From Octopus vulgaris (taxonomy: Eukaryota), in assembly GCA_951406725.2 (NCBI GenBank), contig OX597831.1, positions 68,696,001 through 68,760,000 of the forward strand: a stretch of DNA of 64,000 nucleotides, given 5' to 3'. A model generated the notes under the pieces. It was not told the DNA's origin and searched no databases. It saw only the letters and a program-made list of their open reading frames with translations. Below, one piece after another: positions 1,430 through 58,016 of this stretch (positions are counted from its first letter, which is position 1; every line of letters starts with the position of its first letter). The position numbers and the translations under genes were made by a program.

Positions 1430-3300
1430 TATGAATGAATATTTGTAATGGTATTTTTCGAAGCATGATACTACACATATATCATGACTCCTTCCTGATT
1501 GGTTTCCGTCTATGGCCACTTTTCAGACAACATACAGCACATTTTCTTCTTGAATTTGTCTTCTTTTGTGTTGTTTGAATTTCCTCTGGAAAATGTCCTG
1601 GTGTAAAATGCAAACATCTTGGTGAAGTCAAAGGTCTACCTACTACTTAAGTAGACTGTAAATCTGCTCCATATTTTGCGATGGTATCTCGTATTATCTG
1701 CATACAAAATATCAGGTGTATGAAGGCTTTTTTTTTCTGCCTCAGTGACTGCTACATTGTACAATAAGTAAGAATTCTATATCACAAGGTCGATCAAATG
1801 GAAGAAGACTTTCTTGTAATATTTCTTACCAAATTTTCTTGTGATGGGATAATCTACTAGTTGTCGGTTCACCTTGTCATCTCCACCCATTGTAAAATTG
1901 TAACCATATACCACTGTTGGTTTCTTCATAGGCTATTGTCTTGTGTCAAAATCCTTCATAGTGGGGTTTCAAAGCATTCCAACGTCCTTCTTGTCTTTCC
2001 TCCTTGTCCTTCCATTATCTTACATCATTGACATGCTGTAACTTTACCATTCTTTCAACTTCGCTCTTTTCACCTGTTCAGGCACTTCCTTTCTATTCAA
2101 ATTGAGAGGTCCATAAATATCAATGTAGCGACTAACCAGAGTGTCAGCTAATTGTGGACTAGTATAAATGTTATCCACAATAAACTTTACCAAGTAAAAG
2201 CTTCATCAGAGACAACACATCACGAGAATTCATGGGATATTCACTATATTCTGAATCAAGCTGTGTTCCTTAGCCAACATAAATGATTATTCTATACACA
2301 AATCCAGTCTTGGTTTCATACACAAAAAAATACTTCACTTCAAACCTCCTCCTTTTTAGAGGTATATACTGCACCCATCCTAACCTTCCCCCAAACAACA
2401 TAAGGCTTTCATCTATAGATAAATCTTGGTTAGGGGTATAACACTTCATAAAGTTCTCACTAAACATCATAAACACATCATAAACTTTATACAATTTTAG
2501 GTTGGGATGTGTTTCTGCATCAAAAGTTTCATTATTCACAAAATGAAGAAGATACTGTTTTATCTTATTATGGCATTTCAAGCTGATCAGCTTCCAAAAG
2601 ATTGGTCTTTCAAGTATTTCATCTTTCAACCAGTTCATTTCTTGATCTGCCATTCTCACAATGCCCCTAAGCATTTTCAAGGCGAAAAACACACAAATTT
2701 CTGCCTTTGTTACAGGGCGCCAAATACAATCTCTTTCTTCAGTTTGTTCCGCAAAGCAATTAGCTTTGTCCACAACTCGATCAATAATTCTGTTGTCACA
2801 AAAAAGACTAAAAAAAATCCAAAGGAATCACATCAGCTGTGTTTTGATCAATTGATATTCCAAGATTTCCAGTGAATGGGAAGTGTGGTGGTGGAGGAAG
2901 CATGCATTCTTCCAACACCACATGTTGATACCAAATTCCTCCTCCTCCTCCTCCTCCATACTCTCCTCCCCTCCTCTTCCATATTCTCCTCCCCTCCTCC
3001 TCCATATTCTCCTCCCCTCCTCCTCCTCCATACTCTCCTCCCCTCCTCCTCCATACTCTCCTCCCCTCCTCCTCCGCCTCATCCTTCATACTCTCCTCCC
3101 CCACCTCCTCCATACTCTCCTCCTCCTCATCCATACTCTTCTCCCCCTCCTCCGTCTCATCCTCATCCTCCATACTCTTCTCCTCCTCCTCCTTACTTGA
3201 GAGGAAATAGCCATTATTAGACAAGCTTGCACTCTCATCTGATGTATCCAAGCTTCTAATAGAAGGTTCATACTCATTGTTATCTTCTGAGCTCGACATC
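1430..3300 (-). pseudogene. piggyBac transposase pseudogene (PGBD4-like)
   Basis: YTPNQDLSIDESLMLFGGRLGWVQYIPLKRRRF (ORF 2270-2773), DNIYTSPQLAD (~2145-2180), YNFTMGGDDKV...KKYYKKVFFHLID (~1790-1910), acidic N-terminus, Cys-containing C-terminus; frameshifts and stops. Confidence 0.9.
2936..3192. repeat. Imperfect ~21-30-bp (ctccatactctcctcccctcctc) minisatellite in the piggyBac N-terminal region
   Basis: About 10 visible tandem units; source of the overlapping E/G/R/P-rich ORFs. Confidence 0.85.
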
Positions 3301-3360
3301 TGGGTGTCATTTGTAAAAAAAAACCCAGAAAAATCCAAGAAATGTCGAGAATTGACGTTT

Positions 3361-3538
3361 AGGCACAGGAGTGGCTGTGTGGTAAGTAGCTTGCTTACCA
3401 ACCACATGGTTCTGGGTTCAGTCCCACTGCGTGGCACCTTGGGCAAGTGTCTTCTACTATAGCTTCGGGCTAGCCAAATCCTTGTGAGTGGATTTGGTGG
3501 ACAGAAACTGAAAGAAGCCTGTTGTATATATGTATGTG

Positions 3539-3583
<45 letters not shown>

Positions 3584-3788
3584 TTGTGTTTCTGTGTTTG
3601 TCTCCCCAACATCGCTTGACTACCGATGCTGGTTGTGTTTACATCCCTGTAACTTAGCGGTTTGGCAAAAGAGACTGATAGAATAAGTACTAGGCTTACA
3701 AAGAATAAGTCCTGGAGTCGATTTGCTCGACTAAAAGTGGTGCTGCAGCATGGCCACATTCAAATGACTGAAAGTAAAAAGAGAGAGT
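3361..3788 (+). mobile_element. tRNA-derived SINE family A (full length, inserted in piggyBac)
   Basis: Head ggcacaggagtggctgtgtggtaag (A box), gggttcagtccc (B box), CORE-like ccttgggcaagt, internal (TA/TG)n, tail ggtgctgcagcatggcc...gactgaaa; ~19 copies or fragments in the window. Confidence 0.9.
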
Positions 3789-14192: not shown

Positions 14193-14548
14193 TAGTTTTA
14201 TTTTTATAGCGTGCTTTCACTTCACTACCGAGCGCAGTTCTGTGTGCCTTGGGTATGTGCTGTGATTTGTTGTGATGCTCTGATGGTTATTGTATTGAAA
14301 GTGTTCTGCGTAGGATGTGTGCAGTGTCCAGTAGTGCAATTTTCTGTATGTTATATGTGTTTGTAAGTCCTGGTGTTTTTGTTATGTATTTGTCTGAATA
14401 TTTTTTTATCATGCCTAATGCACCTACTATGATAGGAATTGTTTTTGTTTTTAGATTCCACATTCGAGTTACCTCTATTTCCAGGTCTTTGTATTTTGAA
14501 AGTTTCTCCATTTCTTTTAGAGACACGTTGTCATCTGCTGGTATTGAT
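14190..14548 (-). mobile_element. 5'-truncated R4/Dong-like non-LTR retrotransposon (restriction-like endonuclease C-terminus + 3'UTR) in (TAA)n
   Basis: SIPADDNVSLKEMEKLSKYKDLEIEVTRMW...IPIIVGALG...IQKIALLDTAHILRRTL*; (TTA)n on both flanks. Confidence 0.85.
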
Positions 14549-14865
14549 TTATTATTATTATTATATAACTGTTCAATATTTGGTAGACTGAGGCAAATTT
14601 CTACGGCATCATCAGCTACACCTCTTTGTTTCTGCGATCTGTACAGTATTGTGTTTTCTTTTCTACTGTTGGGAGTGTGCAAACACTTCCCGGTACTGTA
14701 CTGTGTAAGTTTCTTTTCTCTCTTGACGTATGGTGCAGTCTTTCGTTGTGTTACTGCTTGTATTGTGTGTTGTGTGTGTAATGCTTTGGTTTCCTAGCTT
14801 GCTGCTGGAAGTTTATTTCACTAGATAAATGCTGTACAGAGTGTGTCTTGTATTTGTAGGTTATT

Positions 14866-17165: not shown

Positions 17166-18119
17166 CACCCATTGGCTATTGATACATTTACTCAAGTTTT
17201 CATTTAAATCTCTCTCTCTCTCTCTCTGTATATATATATATTACGAAGTAAAAGCGATCAATAAATCTAGGCAGATATCTATAAATCACTGAGTGTTAAA
17301 TGAATTTGGTTAACTATATCAAATAATCAGACACCAATAAATGCAAGTTGAATTAATAGCCAAGGTAATTCTTCAAATATGACAAGTAAATCTAAATATT
17401 ATTTAAGAGACAAGAGCAAGAATAGAGAAGGTCACACCTCTAATTGGTGATTAAACCATAGATTACTAACGACTGTTTCTGCTGTCTAGCATATTTGGAC
17501 ACAGGAAAAAGTTATAAAATATCAGTCACATTAATATAGCTGAAAATATATGCTAACAGAATGTTACCAAGGCAATCCAAAACTGGATTAAATTCAAAGG
17601 GAACTATAATTAGCCATAGCTTTATGATCAAGATGTCTGTGCCCAACTATGGGGATTTAGGTTCAATCCAACTGTGTAGTATCTTGGGATTGTGTCTACT
17701 ATTAAAAAAGATGATACATACATGCATACATAAATACATACACATTCACTTTGCAAATAAATATATATTCATACATATTCATACATAATTTAATCATTTA
17801 TTCATATTTCATACTCTATAGTACATGCTTTCATATTTTCATTTTATACTTGTTTATATTTCTTATTGTTCATAAAGAATTAGGGTTATATTGCATCACT
17901 AATATCTTATTTTTGTTCATTCTTAATTCGTAGTTTTGGTTTTTATTTTTTAATATGTTTAGAAAATTATTTTCAAAATTCTCTTAAACTTTATATCTTT
18001 TAATTTTTAATTCGTCCCTTAATTTCTAACTTCTTCACATTATTGCATTTTCATCATTGGTACCTCAACATCAAACCTTGGCATTGATCTTTTATAACTT
18101 TTCAACTTCTCACTACACA

Positions 18120-18267
18120 TTATTTACATTATTTACAATTGACGGATAATTGTCCTCATCTTGTTTGTTGTTAATACAATGTTTCGGCTGATATACCATC
18201 CAGCCTTCATCAGGCATCTTGGGGAAATTTCGAACCTGGGTTCTCATTCCTAAGGTGTTTTTCAATG

Positions 18268-18313
<46 letters not shown>

Positions 18314-18541
18314 TATTCAGGTCACTGCTTGGAATCGAACTCAGAATCTTGGGGTTAGTAGCCCCAAGATCGAAGAACACCTTAAGAATGAGAACCCAGG
18401 TTCGAAATTTCCTCAAGACACCTGATGAAGGCTGGTGGGTATATCAGCCGAAACGTTGTGTTAACAATAAACATGATGAGGACAAATATCCATCAATTGT
18501 AAATAATGTACATAATTCCTCATCTCCTAAATATGGAACTG
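18120..18541. mobile_element. Inverted pair of the tRNA-head/(AAT)n/HHR Penelope terminal-repeat unit, without ORF
   Basis: Minus copy ~18120-18363 and plus copy ~18369-18541, both matching 33616-33872. Confidence 0.88.
18417..18462 (+). ncRNA. Minimal type I hammerhead ribozyme (canonical core, Penelope type)
   Basis: gacac-CTGATGA-a-ggctg...cagcc-GAAAC-GTT-gtgtt; palindromic AACGTT stem III; decayed copies at 18173-18218 (-) and 33748-33792 (+). Confidence 0.85.
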
Positions 18542-19080
18542 TATTCTCACTACACCTCTTCCACTTTATTTTCCATTTCTTACTTATTACACTCTATCTC
18601 TTTTGGAGTAGAACTGTGTTCTTCTACAGCCCAGGGTTGGCTTTTCCCATATTTTTCTGTCAGAATGCGTTTTCAGCCCAGTGCTCGCATACTTTTCCTT
18701 GGGCTCTCTGTGTTCCTCAGGAGTTAGTCTAAGATGTAATTCTCCCAAGGTCACTTGCAGATTTATAATACATATAATGCTGGCAATACTCTATACTTTA
18801 TTTCATTTTACTTTACTTTATCCTGAATTCTGCTACCCCTTATGTAGAATGTTCTTTTTATTCTTGAATGAGAGTAAACAGCTTCAATTTATTCCTATTG
18901 TATCTATACCTCTACAATTCAGGAATTTCTAATATCTACCTCTGTAACTAACTAGCTATGTATTAAGCATTTATTCTCTACTTCTCTTATTTTAATCCTT
19001 ATTCCTGCTGTTCTCTTTACAGTGATTACTAATATCTTTAGAACTAGTTAAGTATTAACCATTTACGCTATATCTTTAAT

Positions 19081-19395
19081 GTTGTGTCTGGGGAGAGTCA
19101 TTCTCTTTTAGTGTCTTATTATTTAACACACTCACCAGTAAAATTTCCACTTAATACTTATTTTTATTTTTTTTAATTTTCGTTGCGTGTTGCAACCTTT
19201 TCAAGAGTCAAGACTATTGAAAAGGTTGCAAGACACAACGAAAATTTTAGAAAATAAAAGTAAGAAATAAGTGGAAATTTTACCGGTGAGTGTGTTACAT
19301 TATAAGGCACAAAAAGAAAATGACTCTCCCCAGATACAACAGAATATGCTTCAACAGACGAACTCATATAAAGAATCTTGCAAACCAAAATCCCA
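19081..19395 (+). mobile_element. Fold-back PLE-type short element (family FB2), ~124-bp arms, 12-nt loop
   Basis: Arms 19081-19204 and 19217-19340; 3' extension resembles the FB1 3' end. Confidence 0.8.
19214..19250 (+). ncRNA. Candidate minimal hammerhead, U3-A8 covariant core
   Basis: cta-TTGAAAA-g-gttg(caagaca)caac-GAAA-at-TT-tag; palindromic AAATTT. Confidence 0.45.
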
Positions 19396-32100: not shown

Positions 32101-32423
32101 GTCATGTGTACAAGACTGTAAATTTTAGAATAACTTAGATCAACCTCAATGCTTAACTAGCATTATTTTATCAACCATCAAGAGGATGAAATGTAAAGTC
32201 ACTCTTAGCAGGATTTGAACTAAAAATATAAAGTGATGTGAATTAAAAACCGTAAAGTATTTTGCCCACTGTTTTACCAATTCTGCTACTCCGTTGCCCA
32301 ATCAACAACAGCAATTATAGTTATTTCTTTAATTGGAGTGGGTAGTATGTTTTTGGGGTAGTTGTTGCTTAATAGATTGTTACTTAGCTTGATATAATCA
32401 GTCCATTAGCAGAAAAGTCAACA

Positions 32424-33586
32424 TTGTACGTGAAGAATTCCACCCACTTCACAGAATTGATCAAGGATACCCCCACTGAATCCAACCAGATGGTGAGTTT
32501 AGATGTGATAAGTCTGTTCACCAAAGTCCCAACAGGTGAAGCACTATGGGTAATTCAAGAAAAACTAGTGACAGACACCCATCTAGAATGTACTAGTATA
32601 CCAATAAGAAACTTGATGGAAATGTTGACCTTCTGTGTAGAAACTACCTACTTCAGTATGGACACTGATATATATCAACAAGAAGAGGGTTTAGCTATGG
32701 GTTCACCATTATCACTGATAATAGCCAATATATACATGGAATACTTTGAGAATTTGGCTTTAGGATCAACACTACTAAAACCAACCCTATGGCTGCAATA
32801 TGTTGATGACACCTTTATACTCTGGCCCCACAAGGAAGATGTCCAAGTGCAGTTAGATCATCTGAACACAATAAAGCCATCCATACAGTTCACAATGGAA
32901 AAGGAAAAAGACAATCAGCTAGCATTCCTGGACGTATTAATAACATGCACCAAGTATGGATACAGGACATCTGTATACTGCAAGCTGACCATCACTAGAT
33001 GATATCTCAGCTTCAATTCCCACCATCCATGCAGTGTAAAGAAGAGAGCGACTGCTCAGTACCTGAAACAGGAAAGAGAGGATGACACCAATAAACTGTC
33101 CACAGTCTGTCTACCCTATGAGAAAGGCCTCTCCAAAAAGATACAAAAGATATGCAGCCCATATGACACCAGGACAGTATTCAAGAGTAATACAACACTT
33201 TTCAAATATCTCCTTCAAGTAAAACCACCAATAAAGAGTATATGACCAAAGACTGCATGTATTCCATCCCATGCAGCTGTGGTAAGTTATGCAAAAGTGA
33301 AACATGACACCCCCTCAAGGTAAGGGTAGACGAACATCACAAAGCTGTGACATGAGGAGATATTGATAAATCAGGTATAGCTGATCATGTATGGAAAAAT
33401 GGAGACCACCTCCCCCTGTGGAATGATGTTAAAATAATAGACAAAGAACACCACTGGAAAATACAAAAACTAAAAGAAGCAGCACATATGCTAGGACACA
33501 ACAACTTCCTAAGCAGAGTGAGTGCAGATAAGAGTAGCATATGGGAGCCAGTATGAAGGAAGGATAAGAAAATATTAGATTTATAA
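32424..33586 (+). pseudogene. Penelope/Poseidon-type reverse transcriptase + GIY-YIG endonuclease pseudogene
   Basis: MVSLDVISLFTKVP, YQQEEGLAMGSPLS, WLQYVDDTF, IQFTMEKEKDNQLAFLDV; then MYSIPCSCGK...RVDEH...SGIADHVW...KLKEAAHM. Confidence 0.93.
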
Positions 33587-33615
33587 GCCCTAAAATTCAT
33601 ACCATAATTGCCCAT

Positions 33616-33676
33616 AGGCATATGGTGTAGTGGTTAAGAGCACAGGCTACTAACCTCGATTCCAGGCAGTGACCTG
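33616..33676 (+). promoter_or_regulatory. tRNA-derived head (Pol III A/B-box-like) inside the Penelope terminal repeat
   Basis: A box tggtgtagtggtta, loop ctactaa, tcgattcc, acceptor-like agg(t)ca/tgacct; intact B box gagttcgattcc in the minus copy at ~18318-18363. Confidence 0.7.
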
Positions 33677-34574
33677 AGTAATAATGATAATAATAATAAC
33701 ATTGAAAGTACCTTAGGAATGAGAACCCAGGTTCAAAATTTCCCTAAGGCACCTGATGAAGGCTGGAGGGTATATCAGCCAAAACGTTGTGTTAACAACA
33801 AACAAGATGAGGATAAATATCCATCGAATGTAAATAATGTACACAATTCCTCATCTCTTAAATATAGAACTGCATATTTCTATTAGCTACAATAGCTATT
33901 AATAGGGAATATTTCAAAAAGATTTACACTACATTTAGATGCTGTTACAGACATTTTAAAACAAATTTAGCGTTACAGTAATAATAGAATATAATACTTA
34001 AATTGATTAAATCATGTTCATTGTAGCTAGAACTAAGCTGTTGGTGATAATTGAAACTGAAAAAATGAAAAATTAAAATTCATATAAGCTGTAAAGTTTA
34101 ATTTTTAGGCTTTCCAAAAAATGTCTATTTAGCTATAGTTACAGTGTATCCTTTGTGCGGAAGATGCATGAAATTTAGTTGTGAGTATACGTTTATATAC
34201 TATTTGGTTTTCTTCAATACAAGTTGATTTTGTAAAATATTTTTAATGAACTGGTGCTTGACCTGGTTGCCTGTTAATATTTTGTCATTGAGGCAATTCA
34301 TTAGAGGGATAATCAATTATCAAAACAAAAGATTTTTAAATTTCCTTCTTCATACATTAAAAATTGTCAGCGGTGGTGCCCCAGCATGGCCGTGGCCTTC
34401 GGGCTAAAACATTTTTAAGGATTTAAGGATACAAATAAAACAATTTCAAATGCTTTTCTTGTTACTACAGATACTTTTTCCCTATGCTGCATTGTTAGCC
34501 CAGAATATTGTTTTGAAGAATTCCATGTGCCAACAGTTAGGCAGACTGATCAAACTTTTGAATTGTCCTTTTAT

Positions 34575-37833: not shown

Positions 37834-38270
37834 CATATATTTATATATATGTATGTATAGGTAACTGCGCTTGTGCGGTGGGTTTGAAAAAGTATAATGT
37901 ATATTGATGGAGCATGTGTATCTTCAGTGTTGGATAAATATGCTTTAATTTTACCACCCTTACTGAAGAAACACAGATGGCAAATTAATTTATTTCCACA
38001 TTAATGCAGAAACTCGAGTATAAGAGTAACTATTGAAATGTTTTTACTTTTCATTCCCTTTGAAATTACTTTTATTTGTGGTTTGGGCTCTAACTGCACT
38101 TTCCAGCTTGTAAGGTCACCTCTTTTGTGTATAAAAATGTACACTAATTTATACATATATATATATATATATATATATTTTTTTATTATCATTTGAGGGA
38201 ATAAAATCCAAAACTTACAAGGAAACAGAATTCAATTTAGAAATACTAAATCAAATTCCACACAATATAA

Positions 38271-38601
38271 TATATATATAAAATATTAGAAAGAAACCAC
38301 CTTTTATCAATTCAAAATGAACAATTAAATTACACCATCTAGAAAATTACATATAATAGAAAAGTTAAAATTAAAATAGCAATAGTAAGTAAAGATTAAG
38401 TAAATTACAAAAATAATAAAAATGTATATAATAGGTAGAAAAACCATTATATACCTTTATATACATTTTTATTATTTTTGTAATTTACTTAATCTTTACT
38501 TTTTATTGTTATTTTAATTTTAACTTTTCTATTATATGTAATTTTCTAGATGGTGTAATTCAATTATTAATTTTGAATTGATAAAAGGTGGTTTCTTTCT
38601 A

Positions 38602-38617
<16 letters not shown>
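38271..38617. repeat. AT-rich fold-back: ~160-bp arms, ~25-nt loop, inside (TA)n
   Basis: aaatattagaaagaaaccacc...atgtatataa / ttatatacat...ggtggtttctttctaatattt. Confidence 0.9.
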
Positions 38618-38633
<16 letters not shown>

Positions 38634-44633: not shown

Positions 44634-45080
44634 TAGGCGAAGGAGTGGCTATAGGTGCAGGAGTGGCTGTGTGGTAAATAGCTTGTTTACCAACCACATG
44701 GTTCCATGTTCAGTCCTACTGTGAGGCACCTTGGGCAAGTGTCTTCTACTATAGCCCCGGGCCGACCAATGCCTTGTGAGTGGATTTGGTAGACAGAAAC
44801 TGAAAGAAGCCCATCGTATATATGTATATATATATATATATGTGTATGTGTGCGTGTATGTTTGTGTGTGTGTGTGTGTTTGTCCCCCTAGCATTGCTTG
44901 ACAACCGATGCTGGTGTGTTTATGTCCCCATCACTTAGTGGTTTGGCAAAAGAGACTGATAGAATAAATACTAGGCTTACAAAGAATAAGTCCCGGAGTC
45001 AACTTGCTCGATTAAAGGTGGTGCTCCAGCATGGCCGCAGTCAAATGACTGAAACAAGTAAAAGAGTAAGAGTAAAGAGT
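44634..45080 (+). mobile_element. SINE family A with duplicated first ~18 nt
   Basis: ataggcgaaggagtggct ataggtgcaggagtggct. Confidence 0.9.
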
Positions 45081-48165: not shown

Positions 48166-48553
48166 ATAGGCGTAGGAGTGGCTGTGTGATAAGTAGCTTG
48201 CTTACCAACCACATGGTTCCGGGTTCAGTCCCACTGCGTGGCACCTTGGGCAAGTGTCTTCTACTATAGCCTCAGGCCGACCAAAGCCTTGTGAGTGGAT
48301 TTGGTAGATGGAAACTGACAGAAGCCCGTCGTATATATGTATGTGTGTGTATATATGTGTGTGTGTTTGTGTTTGTCCTCCCAACATCGCTTGACAACCG
48401 ATGCTGGTGTGTTTACGTCCCCGTAACTTAGTGGTTCGGCAAAAGAGACCGATAGAATAAGTACTAGGCTTACAAAGAATAAGTCGACTTTCTCGACTAA
48501 AGACGGTGCTCTAGCATGGCCACAGTCAAATGACTGAAACAAGTAAAAGAGTA
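48166..48553 (+). mobile_element. SINE family A
   Basis: Full-length copy. Confidence 0.92.
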
Positions 48554-54663: not shown

Positions 54664-57542
54664 ATGTCACAGAAGTATGTACACCCCTAAAAAACTTTAG
54701 TAAAATTGCCATTACTCTGATAATATCGAATGAAATCAAACGCAATTTATTCCGAATAAAATATATTATAGATGCAAACATTATACAAATTTGGAACACA
54801 CGCAATAAATATTTTCAAGATACGAACGAAATATTAATTTTCAAATATTACAAAAATATGTACACCCTAAAGGAAATTTGATATATTTAGTATTTTATCC
54901 ACTTTTTTTTTTTTACTAAATTCAGATATTGCTAGTAATTTCAGTTCTAATAAATTATTTCTCCTGGCATTTTTGCACTAGTCCTTGTTATTGCAATTGT
55001 AGGAATTCTGATTTGTGTAGCATGGTGAAAATTTTCTTCATTGCGATTAAAACGGCACCAAAAGAAAAAGAATTGTCAGCAGATCTGAAAAAAATTATTT
55101 TTAATTTACACAAGAATGTTTTAGGATACGAATGTATATTAGCATAAACATAGTTGCCTAAGTAATTCAGAAGTACAAAGCTACTGGACGACTAAGCAAT
55201 AAACATTGTTGAGGTCATTCTTCTATTTTAACTGCATGTGATATTCACCATATCCAACGTTGTGTGATGGACGACAGGCGTTGTACCACTTCATCTTTGG
55301 CCCAAGAAATGTCTTCTGTTAGTGGAAAGTGTGTATTCACCCAAACAGTTTGCCAAAATTTGAACCAGTGTGGCCTTCATGGATGCATTCCTTGTAGGAA
55401 TCAAGCATCAATCAAGTTGTCATTCTTTTGCTGAAACCTATGTAAGGGGAAGAAGTTTTGGAATAAAATACTTTTTGTCTGGCAAGACTAAAATCAACTT
55501 GTTTGTGTCAGATGGTATTAAACAAGATAATAGCAACAAATGTACTGTGCCTACCGTGAAACATGGCAGCAGAAGTGTTATGCTTTGGGGATGCATGAGT
55601 GAAGCTGGTGTAGAAGGACTCACATTTATTGAGGGAACAATGGATTCGAGGCTTTATTGTGACATATTGCAGAAAACAATGTTGAAAAGAGCATCAAGGA
55701 ACTAGGAAGATATCCCATGTCCAACATGATAATGACTCTAAACACACTTCAAAGAAGATGACTAAGTTTTTATCAGATAAAAAGGTAAAGATATTGCTTT
55801 GGCCTACCACTTCACATGATATAAACACAATAGAACATCTGTGGGGTCTTTTGAAAAGGAAGGTTGAGGAGAAAAAAACCCCCGTAAAGTAACATAGTTA
55901 AAAAATATTATTCATGATACGAGGGGCGTTCAATAAGTAATGCCCCTGACCCACTTCCCATAGCAATAGAGCAACGAATCTTGGCAGAGTTAATAGTCTT
56001 TTTCTACATAGGAAACACCCAGAGTTACGCATTTCTCCCATCGTTTGATGCAGCTCTGATGACCGTTTTTGTAGAAGACCCCAGCTTGATCCTCCAGCCA
56101 TGACGTGACTTCAGAAATCAAGGCTGCATCATCTGGGAAAGGCTTCCCTTTCAAAAACAACTTCATGGCTGGGAAGAGGAGAAAATCAGAGGGTGCAAGG
56201 TCATGAGAGTAGGGGGATGGGGGGCGAGTTCATAGCCACATGCCTGTGCTTCTGATCTGGCGACAAGCGAGTTGTGGACAGGAGCGTTGTCCTGCAGGAG
56301 GAGGATGCCTTTGCTGATCTTGCCATGCTTCTTGATTTTGATAGCTTCTCTTAATTTCCTCAACAGTGAAGCATAATAGGCTCCTGTAATTGTGGTACCC
56401 TTTGCCAGGAAATCTGTCATCACTACACTGTCCTGGTCCCAGAAGACTGTGAGCATGACCTTGCCAGCGGAGAGCTGCACCCTTGCCTTCTTTGGAGGAG
56501 GTGAGTCATGGTGCTTCCACTGCATTGACTGGGCTTTGGTCTCTGGATCATAGTGATGGACCCAGGTTTCATCCTGTGTAATCAGTCTTTTGAAAAATTT
56601 TGACTCATCTTCTTGGCACATCTCCAAATTCATCCTCGAGCACTTGACGCATTCTTGCTTCTGGAAAGGTGTGAGCAGCCTGGGAATCCATCTGTCAGAC
56701 ACCTTTTGCATATGCAAATGGTAATGAATTATAGTTTCCACAGACCTGGTACTAATCTTGACCTCATGGGCTATTTAGCGAATAGTTATATGTCGATCTT
56801 CCAAAATGGTAGCCTCAACTTGACGGACAGATGCCTCATCAATGGCAGAAGGGGGGCGACCAGATCTGGGAGCTGTTTCCACAGAGTTCCGACCGTGTTT
56901 GAATTGACGATACCAGCGTTTTACAAGGCCATATGATGGGGCATCGTCACCATAAGTTACTTTCATTTCATCAAAAGTCTCCCGTGGTGTGCGTCCTTTC
57001 AAATACAAAAACCGGATCACTGCTCAACACTCAACAGGCTCCATTTCATACTTGACTCCGTTCAAACACCTGTAAATCAGAAACCACAATTAGTTCAGAG
57101 ATGTAATTTGCCACTTAATCTATAGAGATATAAATAATTGCACATGCAAAATTTCAGCTAGATCAAACAACTGCAAGTGGGTCAGGGGCATTACTTATTG
57201 AACGTCCCTCGTAAATAGAGGTCGATTTCATTGGTTATATGTGGAAATTTAGTTGACTGTATGCCCAGAAGACTTCATGCAGTCATTGAAAGCAAGGGTG
57301 TCACACTAAATATTGAATATAGCAAATAATCCTTTAGGGTGTACAGATTTTTGTATTGCTTGAAAATTAATGTTTCGTTCTCATCTTTGAAAATTTATCT
57401 CATTTTGTGTTCAAAATTTGTATAATGTTTGCATGTATATTATATTTTATTCAGTATAAATTTCGTTTGCTTCCCTTTAATATTATCAGATTAATGGAAA
57501 TTTTACTGTAATTTTTTAGTGGTGTACGCACGTCTGTGAGAT
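54664..57542 (+). mobile_element. Tc1 (DD34E, IR/DR type) with ~220-bp TIRs, interrupted by a mariner
   Basis: Long TIRs with gtacaccc direct repeats; KELSADLKKII, PTVKHGSRSVMLWGCMS, QHDNDSKH, DINTIEHLW, and MPRRLHAVIESKG after the insert. Confidence 0.92.
55920..57211 (-). mobile_element. Full-length mariner (DD34D-type, irritans-like), 1292 bp, TA TSD
   Basis: 37-bp TIRs with one mismatch (cgaggggcgttcaataagtaatgcccctgacccactt); WIPRLL, QDETWVHHYDPETK, QDNAPVH; a few stops/frameshifts. Confidence 0.96.
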
Positions 57543-57590: not shown

Positions 57591-57595
<5 letters not shown>

Positions 57596-58016
57596 CGCAG
57601 GAGTGGCTGTGTGGTAAGTATCTTGTTTACCAACCACATGGTTCCAGGTTCAGTCCCACGGCGTGGCACCTTGGGCAAGTGTCTTCTACTATAGCCTCGG
57701 GCCGACCAAAGCCTTGTGAGTGGATTTGGTAGACGGAAACAGAAAGAAGCCCGTCGTATATATGTATATATATATATATATGTGTGTCTGTGTTTGTCCC
57801 CCTAGCATTGCTTGACAACCGATGCTGGTGTGTTTATGTTCCCGTTACTTAGCGGTTCGGCAAAAGAGACTAATAGAATAAGTACTGGGCTTACAAAAGA
57901 ATAAGTCCCGGGGTCGAGTTGCTTGATTAAAGGCAGTGCTCCAGCATGGCCGCAGTCAAATGACCCAGAACCATGTGGTTGGTAAACAAGCTACTTACCA
58001 CACAGCCACTCCTGCG

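Follow-up and report, generated by a model that had tools for sequence, protein, structure and literature searches.

We have analyzed a stretch of 64,000 nucleotides of Octopus vulgaris (the window), located on contig C18 of a genome of 2.8 Gb in 227 contigs (G000), in which the decayed 3' part of a Penelope-like element (PLE) of the Penelope/Poseidon type is followed by a short composite repeat (Table 1). The open reading frame (ORF) gives a match to the reverse transcriptase (RT) domain RVT_1 of Pfam (E 3e-9) and to protein P0002 by tblastn (59%), and is damaged by stops, one frameshift, an internal deletion and an inverted piece. The tRNA-like head, which the initial annotation had placed soon after the RT/GIY-YIG stop codon, has its +1 at 33616, 29 nt past the TAA, and the A box, the CTACTAA loop, the (AAT)n tract and a minimal hammerhead were all located at 33616–33872 as it had claimed. 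The same annotation described the sense strand as lacking TTTT (T4), and the first T4 of this copy is found only at 33954, beyond the repeat unit. The putative hammerhead shows CUGAUGA, an extra A, helix II and a GAAAC-GUU palindrome, with no loop 3, and a defined 3' end (ATATAGAACTG, at about 33875) is also present; what had been taken for a non-coding tail is, however, coding sequence, the opening 52 codons of the ORF of the element itself. This copy is a dead fossil, with a broken B box (a 14-nt deletion between 33655 and 33656 removed its 5' half), stops in the ORF and the G12 of the ribozyme changed to A (CAGCCAAAAC; the predicted cut site would follow 33788).

Table 1. Features located in the window (positions in the 64,000-nt stretch).
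Feature	Position	Strand	Basis
Inverted 5' piece of the insertion, part of the ORF segment missing from the plus arm at 33070	32324..32393	-	blastn to natural copies L040, L060
Penelope/Poseidon ORF, 5'-truncated and broken: RT, thumb, C-terminal GIY-YIG-type region	32391..33586	+	Pfam, tblastn
ORF stop TAA	33584-33586	+	sequence
Leader, 6 nt before tRNA +1; 5' limit of solo copies, putative transcription start	33610..33615	+	boundaries of 73 non-ORF copies
tRNA-Arg(ACG)-derived head	33616..33677	+	alignment to the genome's own tRNA-Arg(ACG) genes
A box TGGTGTAGTGG	33623-33633	+	sequence
Loop CTACTAA	33647-33653	+	sequence
B box remnant	33656-33663	+	sequence
(AAT)n tract, length varies among copies, target of later insertions	33679..33700	+	
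First 52 codons of the element's own ORF (pLTR body), ATG 33719	33719..33874	+	open frame from ATG
Minimal type I hammerhead (predicted)	33748..33793	+	sequence compared with features in the consulted part of PMC4209133
PLE tail between two preferred 3' ends (putative reverse-transcription start sites)	33841..33875	+	arm ends; model in the consulted part of PMC11167929
Left arm of second locus: partial head, (AAT)n, hammerhead; ends at short 3' site	18119..18364	-	
Right arm of second locus: headless, intact hammerhead core, ends at long 3' site	18376..18544	+	
12-bp target-site duplication of second locus	left copy 18107..18118, right copy 18544-18555	+	
Copies of the D9/D13 repeat (included among others)	3360-3592, 44652-44884, 48167-48399, 57592-57824	+	
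Mariner-type transposase fragment	56163-56774	-	PF01359
piggyBac-like transposase fragment	2270-2827	-	PF13843
Long near-perfect inverted repeat, 162-nt arms 25 nt apart	38270-38618		
Second hairpin, near 19200	19122-19299		

At 18120–18541 a second copy with the same module order had been reported. What we found there is instead a head-to-head inverted pair within a 12-bp target-site duplication (TSD). The B box is intact as stated, in the minus arm, whose head is 5'-truncated and has no A box, and the hammerhead cut predicted after GTT at 18457 had been correctly placed, falling in the plus arm. Elsewhere in the window there are at least nine plus-strand copies of another abundant short repeat with a tRNA-like start (families D9 and D13), together with two transposase fragments and two inverted repeats that are possibly MITE-like or fold-back elements.

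The unit is not a one-off insertion, as the initial annotation had anticipated. An exact 25-nt pattern of the head matched 2,521 times in G000 and an exact 24-nt pattern of the hammerhead 5,587 times, with no match for either reversed control. Since the exact 24-mer is kept in 20 of 111 sampled arms, the number of arms would be about 31,000, and for ORF segments 268–943 first-look candidates were obtained. Outside CpG, the bodies differ by about 5% from the majority base of the columns.

The genomic context indicates that the unit is the pseudo-LTR (pLTR) of an autonomous Penelope/Poseidon family and not a separate SINE. Among 30 copies selected by their RT, 20 reach the end of the ORF and in all of them (20/20) the head comes next. 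In 30 copies chosen by the 5' part of the ORF, the body passes straight into the ORF, and tandems of ORF end, head, body and ORF were found in L067, L068 and L085; L071 and L076 read head-body-ORF, with the head just upstream of the next ORF start. In natural copies the frame runs from an ATG after the (AAT)n, through the hammerhead, and into an N-terminus homologous to other PLE-type proteins. The majority frame, of 835 codons, opens 34 nt ahead of the hammerhead core and is 36–40% identical over ~800 amino acids to four full-length PLE-type relatives. As the hammerhead body makes up the first ~52 codons, the head and the (AAT)n are nearly the whole spacer between ORFs; the non-coding part of the repeating unit, mostly these two modules, measures about 130 nt. 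The ORF stop is followed by 29 nt, the head, the (AAT)n and the ATG, and the first 52 codons contain the hammerhead and the tail.

The single ORF contains the RT, with RVT_1 matches that in L298 fall below the Pfam cut-off; over RT and endonuclease, L298 shares 37% identity with a PLE-type protein of Anolis. At the C-terminus, the sequence VYSIPxSCGxxYxGET, which we take to be a GIY-YIG endonuclease motif, has its counterpart in the Anolis protein around VYRIPCSCGQVYIGTT, and the assignment is made from this alignment and the motif since Pfam gave no GIY-YIG match even for the Anolis protein. Tandem and inverted pLTRs with a tail are found, as expected for an endonuclease-bearing (EN+) Penelope/Poseidon PLE, and a quick tree built on an uncurated reference set groups the family with the Anolis protein (P0032, support 93). 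Proteins P0001–P0024 form a sister lineage, 56–71% identical to the RT. Open frames in the family loci examined reach at most 569 amino acids, so that the family, abundant and now decayed, looks inactive.

The unit is also present in contigs of four other runs belonging to four organisms (codes including X17 and X20), and two of the pieces listed, one of X17 and one of X20, span the junction of ORF and head with at least 31 letters. The viral contigs searched gave no match to the unit. Nine distant loci appeared in metagenome contigs, and a B-box search of the two with a long frame found none; a distant metagenome PLE (L288:2390-2425) has a very similar minimal hammerhead ending GAAACGTT, without the tRNA head. 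Two young PLE families (L327–L334) have intact frames of 1,000–1,200 codons and pyrimidine-rich sense strands. When searched near the ORF they gave no tRNA-like head and no convincing hammerhead, and one of them has a long poly(T) immediately after the stop.

The putative ribozyme has the features of a minimal type I hammerhead, namely CUGANGA, an extra base before helix II, G10.1-C11.1 and the palindromic 15.2-16.2. RNAalifold applied to eight hammerheads returned an alternative fold with no covariation, and the ribozyme fold was not supported, a result that is uninformative because seven of the eight belong to one family. In dimer folding the dimeric hammerhead was not the minimum-energy form. 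By comparison with the consulted part of PMC4209133, cleavage by the predicted hammerhead would require a dimer or the help of a protein.

The head resembles most the tRNA-Arg(ACG) genes of the octopus genome, with scores of 64–75 (z 8–10) in a sample of nine isotypes; the best among the eight others was tRNA-Arg(TCG), with 62. More than 20 tRNA-Arg gene matches are clustered at 211.887–211.907 Mb of contig C2, many with a spacing of ~206 bp. The family head keeps an A box and a B box, which presumably fit the consensus, while the pairing of the T-stem is broken, a combination more in keeping with a promoter than with a folded tRNA. Rfam (run on the whole window, L007 and L110) and ARAGORN detected neither the tRNA nor the hammerhead, giving only low-complexity miRNA matches, so that both assignments come from direct alignment and motif match. 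Near the ORF end, tRNA likeness was 57–80 in four family copies and 35–50 in eight loci of the two other PLE families of G000, the metagenome PLE and two LINE copies. A strict A-plus-B expression was no test, since it missed the four family copies too.

A LINE fragment, 3' end only, was found in the window (14287-14793, minus strand) and at L347–L350, with 55,798 first-look candidates; from its protein end and (AAT)n tail it is presumably R4/Dong-like. Its 3' end, CTGAA(TAA)n, is identical to that of the tRNA head, a hint at an origin of the head as a SINE that this LINE mobilised. The same identity would also be expected if the head were just a passenger, i.e., a tRNA-Arg SINE with an (AAT)n tail that inserted in the founder pLTR, where either Pol II starts or ends are joined by a palindrome. 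The B box, intact in 43 of 90 sampled heads, is as neutral decay predicts. However, an (AAT)n target upstream of the head is found in none of the 90 cases, we saw no family of free heads flanked by TSDs of their own, and just ~30 nt upstream plus 40 nt downstream are left for another promoter. We consider a passenger head unlikely, also in view of the 5' ends of the copies.

These ends were studied in the first 90 of the 2,521 head matches in genome order, all on contig C1; this sample was used instead of a head-only blast (1 of 30 ORF-linked), which was biased by the fold-back variant of the query. Seventeen heads were linked to an ORF, and the other 73 had no ORF 3' sequence at all and stopped just upstream of the tRNA +1, with boundaries at 0 (6 copies), -1 (7), -2 (7), -3 (7), -4 (9), -5 (6), -6 (5), -7 (25) and -8 (1). 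That is, in 73 of 90 (71 of 86 with four duplicate loci merged) the end lies no more than 8 nt upstream of +1, an interval for which the truncation rate further upstream predicts ~2.5%. A template beginning ~6 nt before +1 would explain this pile-up, and a self-complementary leader would explain the head-to-head junctions; joining at this point could also be favoured by an imperfect hairpin (-8.7 kcal/mol) that extends across the start of the head. A wall 6–7 nt before the tRNA +1 lies at the position expected of a Pol III start, which speaks against the passenger. In its favour, defined pLTR 5' ends with palindromic junctions are described as common in PLEs devoid of tRNA heads in the consulted part of PMC3846280, and the pile-up therefore shows a start site and not a polymerase. 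We have also considered that the tRNA-like fold could be an RNA-processing signal, with RNase P cutting at +1 and trimming tandem precursors. Many solo copies do end at 0 to -5, but 30 of the 73 end at -6 or -7, beyond the RNase P cut, and the T-stem is broken, so we rejected this very improbable option.

The initial annotation had pointed to a head mostly lacking the hammerhead as the mark of an independent SINE. We found the hammerhead body downstream in 73 of the 90 heads (57 of the 73 solo copies and 16 of the 17 ORF-linked ones), which, with the head at every ORF end sampled, led us to reject a SINE of this kind. Conversely, 30 arms anchored by the hammerhead had a same-strand head fragment upstream in 18 cases and ORF 3' sequence in none. 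In some loci other elements sitting in the (AAT)n of the pLTR separate heads from bodies: the bodyless head of L194 continues after (AAT)n into the body of an R4-like LINE (97% identity), those of L155, L172 and L204 into sequence that elsewhere also follows an R4-like tail, and that of L173 into another repeat.

A different version of the same idea is that most copies stem from master copies of their own, as an independent SINE lineage that is non-autonomous and relies on the Penelope enzyme. It would account for the 73 of 90 heads that start at the head and have no ORF sequence, and for the excess of the estimated arms over the ORF candidates. To compare both classes we used 36 ORF-linked and 73 solo copies over about 260 columns. 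Divergence was the same (5.2% in solo and 5.3% in ORF-linked copies, p 0.56), polymorphic columns were common to both, and a single column, at a CpG, had p<0.01 (p 0.002). With equal divergence, no diagnostic site and a head that belongs to the coding element, a separate SINE lineage is not needed, and we regard it as quite improbable, recent solo master copies being possible. The SINE/retrozyme hybrid proposed from the sequence is not supported as a distinct lineage by the same data. A tandem retrozyme was rejected, since the sampled copies are found singly or head-to-head and partial direct repeats are only occasional.

The other end of the copies is also well defined. Arm ends fall in two clusters about 27 nt apart in 79 of 90 cases, the interval corresponding to the PLE tail, and inverted pairs usually have one arm ending at each of the two 3' sites. 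TSDs of at least 8 bp (mostly 11–14) flank 25 of 43 inverted pairs, compared with 0 of 43 in a shifted null. This pattern fits internal initiation at two adjacent sites, as modeled in the consulted part of PMC11167929.

The suggestion that a Penelope family captured a tRNA-derived internal promoter thus finds structural support in the head order at the ORF ends, the tandem copies and the 5' ends. As most copies begin at the tRNA head, the element was likely read by Pol III. Our preferred reading, to which we assign a probability of roughly 0.6, is a tRNA-headed PLE pLTR that would be read by Pol III and would yield its own SINE-like short copies; for the Pol III start at the head taken by itself, probable is the word we would use, with slightly more confidence if anything.

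How far such a polymerase could go was approached through the terminators. From the head to the ORF end (~2.65 kb) there is no T4 site common to at least 15% of the covering copies. The family has 0.39 T4 per kb when 2.2 were expected, and A4 is at expectation. For the absence of shared T4 in the 2,591-nt majority sequence (head excluded), P was 0.027 with a synonymous shuffle, 0.0085 with a base shuffle and 0.005 with a third-base null, and TTT and other xTT codons are under-used in the majority frame. As controls, two other PLE families have 6–8 T4 per 2.85 kb and two T5 each, four R4-like LINE copies have 3–4 T4 each and 1–2 T5, and 16, 2 and 7 T4 were counted in the metagenome PLE, the mariner and the piggyBac-like element, respectively. 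The depletion was not significant in partial or frameshifted majority frames (P 0.15–0.18) nor in single natural frames (L298 has three T4, P 0.61), private T4 runs being frequent, and the sense strand of the family is A-rich anyway. The absence of T4 is therefore suggestive only as a sign of Pol III reading. In three RNA-seq runs from 2026 depth was equal on both strands and there was no pile-up of starts at the head, a result that we do not weigh on either side.

Pol III might make only short head-plus-body RNAs. Pol II read-through or a promoter of the host would then supply the ORF message and the long templates, and chance together with the A-rich strand bias would explain why the ORF lacks T4. 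The synonymous-shuffle P of just 0.027 is compatible with that. Uncapped Pol III RNA is poorly translated. This difficulty, also argued in the consulted part of PMC10886601, weighs in the same direction. Furthermore, L067, L068 and L085 have ORF 3' sequence upstream of the first head, which indicates that RNAs starting further upstream existed, although terminator-free reading of tandem arrays predicts such upstream sequence as well. T4 and T5 in all the controls with none shared in the family, and the under-used xTT codons, go against it. We hold this restricted role of Pol III to be a plausible option, short of an even chance. It is a sub-case of the preferred reading, in which the promoter is kept and full-length Pol III transcription is dropped, so the explanations considered here are not all exclusive. 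The most ambitious version, an autonomous coding element transcribed end to end by Pol III, with a captured tRNA-Arg promoter, a 2.6-kb sense strand purged of T4, and internal priming that yielded from one RNA the full-length copies as well as SINE-like ones by the tens of thousands, we put forward tentatively and with some doubt.

Under the preferred reading, that of a pLTR read by Pol III, the RNA would start about 6 nt before the tRNA +1. To begin reverse transcription, the RT/endonuclease would use two internal sites within the first ~150–175 nt of the ORF, one per target strand. When the start takes place in the first repeat, or in the RNA of a solo copy, short head-to-head copies ending at the 5' end of the RNA would be produced (~80% of heads), and a start in a downstream repeat would give ORF-bearing copies with random 5' truncation (~20%). 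Given internal priming, the Pol III RNA would need no defined 3' end and any solo copy that is intact would serve directly as a SINE-like template. The T4-free sense strand suggests, more weakly, that Pol III possibly read through the whole ORF too. We propose that the family works like a self-contained LINE-SINE pair in one element, on Penelope machinery.

If true, this has several implications. Pol II is assumed to be a requirement of autonomous retrotransposons, and the partners of SINEs are LINEs (PMC10886601, in the part consulted); the Pol II rule would not hold for a coding PLE that carries its own Pol III head. It would also provide a direct route for SINE-like elements to arise from Penelope, an origin that may account for repeats of the type of Sm-alpha in Schistosoma. 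According to the consulted part of PMC13282606, 893 of the 900 SINE families with recent activity in cephalopods are filed as unclassified, and we suggest that some of these are PLE ends. Besides, the fixed 5' end and the paired arms make a clean dataset on the formation of PLE inverted insertions.

The closest relatives in architecture are the Poseidon and Penelope elements themselves. Poseidon_Ac of Anolis carolinensis and canonical Penelope/Poseidon have, like the octopus family, one ORF with RT and C-terminal endonuclease, tandem and inverted pLTRs, and TSDs around inverted pairs (PMC11167929, PMC3846280); in the Anolis Poseidon the pLTR overlaps the ORF start, with the minimal hammerhead inside the first codons, and the two 3' ends about 30 nt apart that define the tail are common to Poseidon and Penelope (PMC11167929). 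Unlike here, no tRNA-derived head is mentioned for Poseidon/Penelope in the accessible portions of PMC3846280, PMC4209133 and PMC8557442 (tRNA is named once in the last, in an unrelated context), and the mapped promoter of the D. virilis Penelope is described as LINE-like in that of PMC2377424. A full-text search of the literature returned no coding PLE headed by a tRNA; the family may already be present in collections beyond that literature, such as Repbase, Dfam, SINEBase or the published octopus library. The octopus SINEs OK, OR1 and OR2, attributed to Ohshima and Okada in 1994, are said to be tRNA-derived, OR1 and OR2 from tRNA-Arg. They are cited as CORE-SINEs in the consulted parts of PMC4824008 and PMC4758252. 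We set OR1 and OR2 apart by description only: the head found here runs directly into (AAT)n, leaving no room for a CORE central domain.

Pol III promoters derived from small RNAs are also found within the terminal repeats of other retroelements, the TRIMp3 Cassandra, Helenus and Ajax, for which an origin by SINE insertion has been proposed. These are non-autonomous LTR elements of 311–1263 bp with PBS and PPT, whose autonomous partners are argued to require Pol II (all in the consulted part of PMC10886601), while the octopus head is in an autonomous PLE. The combination seen in the octopus had been thought undescribed. In fact a tRNA head with a hammerhead is already known from the Schistosoma repeats Sm-alpha and Sj-alpha, high-copy elements with a tRNA-derived Pol III-type promoter and a type I hammerhead; the head in a coding PLE, which we did not find in the literature, is the new part. 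As far as the available text of PMC6765202 and PMC2770079 goes, the Schistosoma repeats are non-coding and tandem, with a canonical hammerhead, a tRNA-Gln-related head and no partner ORF named, whereas the octopus unit is part of a coding PLE, has a minimal hammerhead and is dispersed as inverted pairs. Finally, non-LTR retrozymes resemble the solo copies in being short repeats with a hammerhead that descend from the pLTRs of PLEs, whose enzymes are thought to mobilise them. In the consulted parts of the same sources (PMC7761336; bioRxiv 10.64898/2026.07.22.740005) they form head-to-tail tandem arrays that make circular RNA, with no Pol III head described, in contrast to the octopus copies, which are mostly head-to-head pairs.
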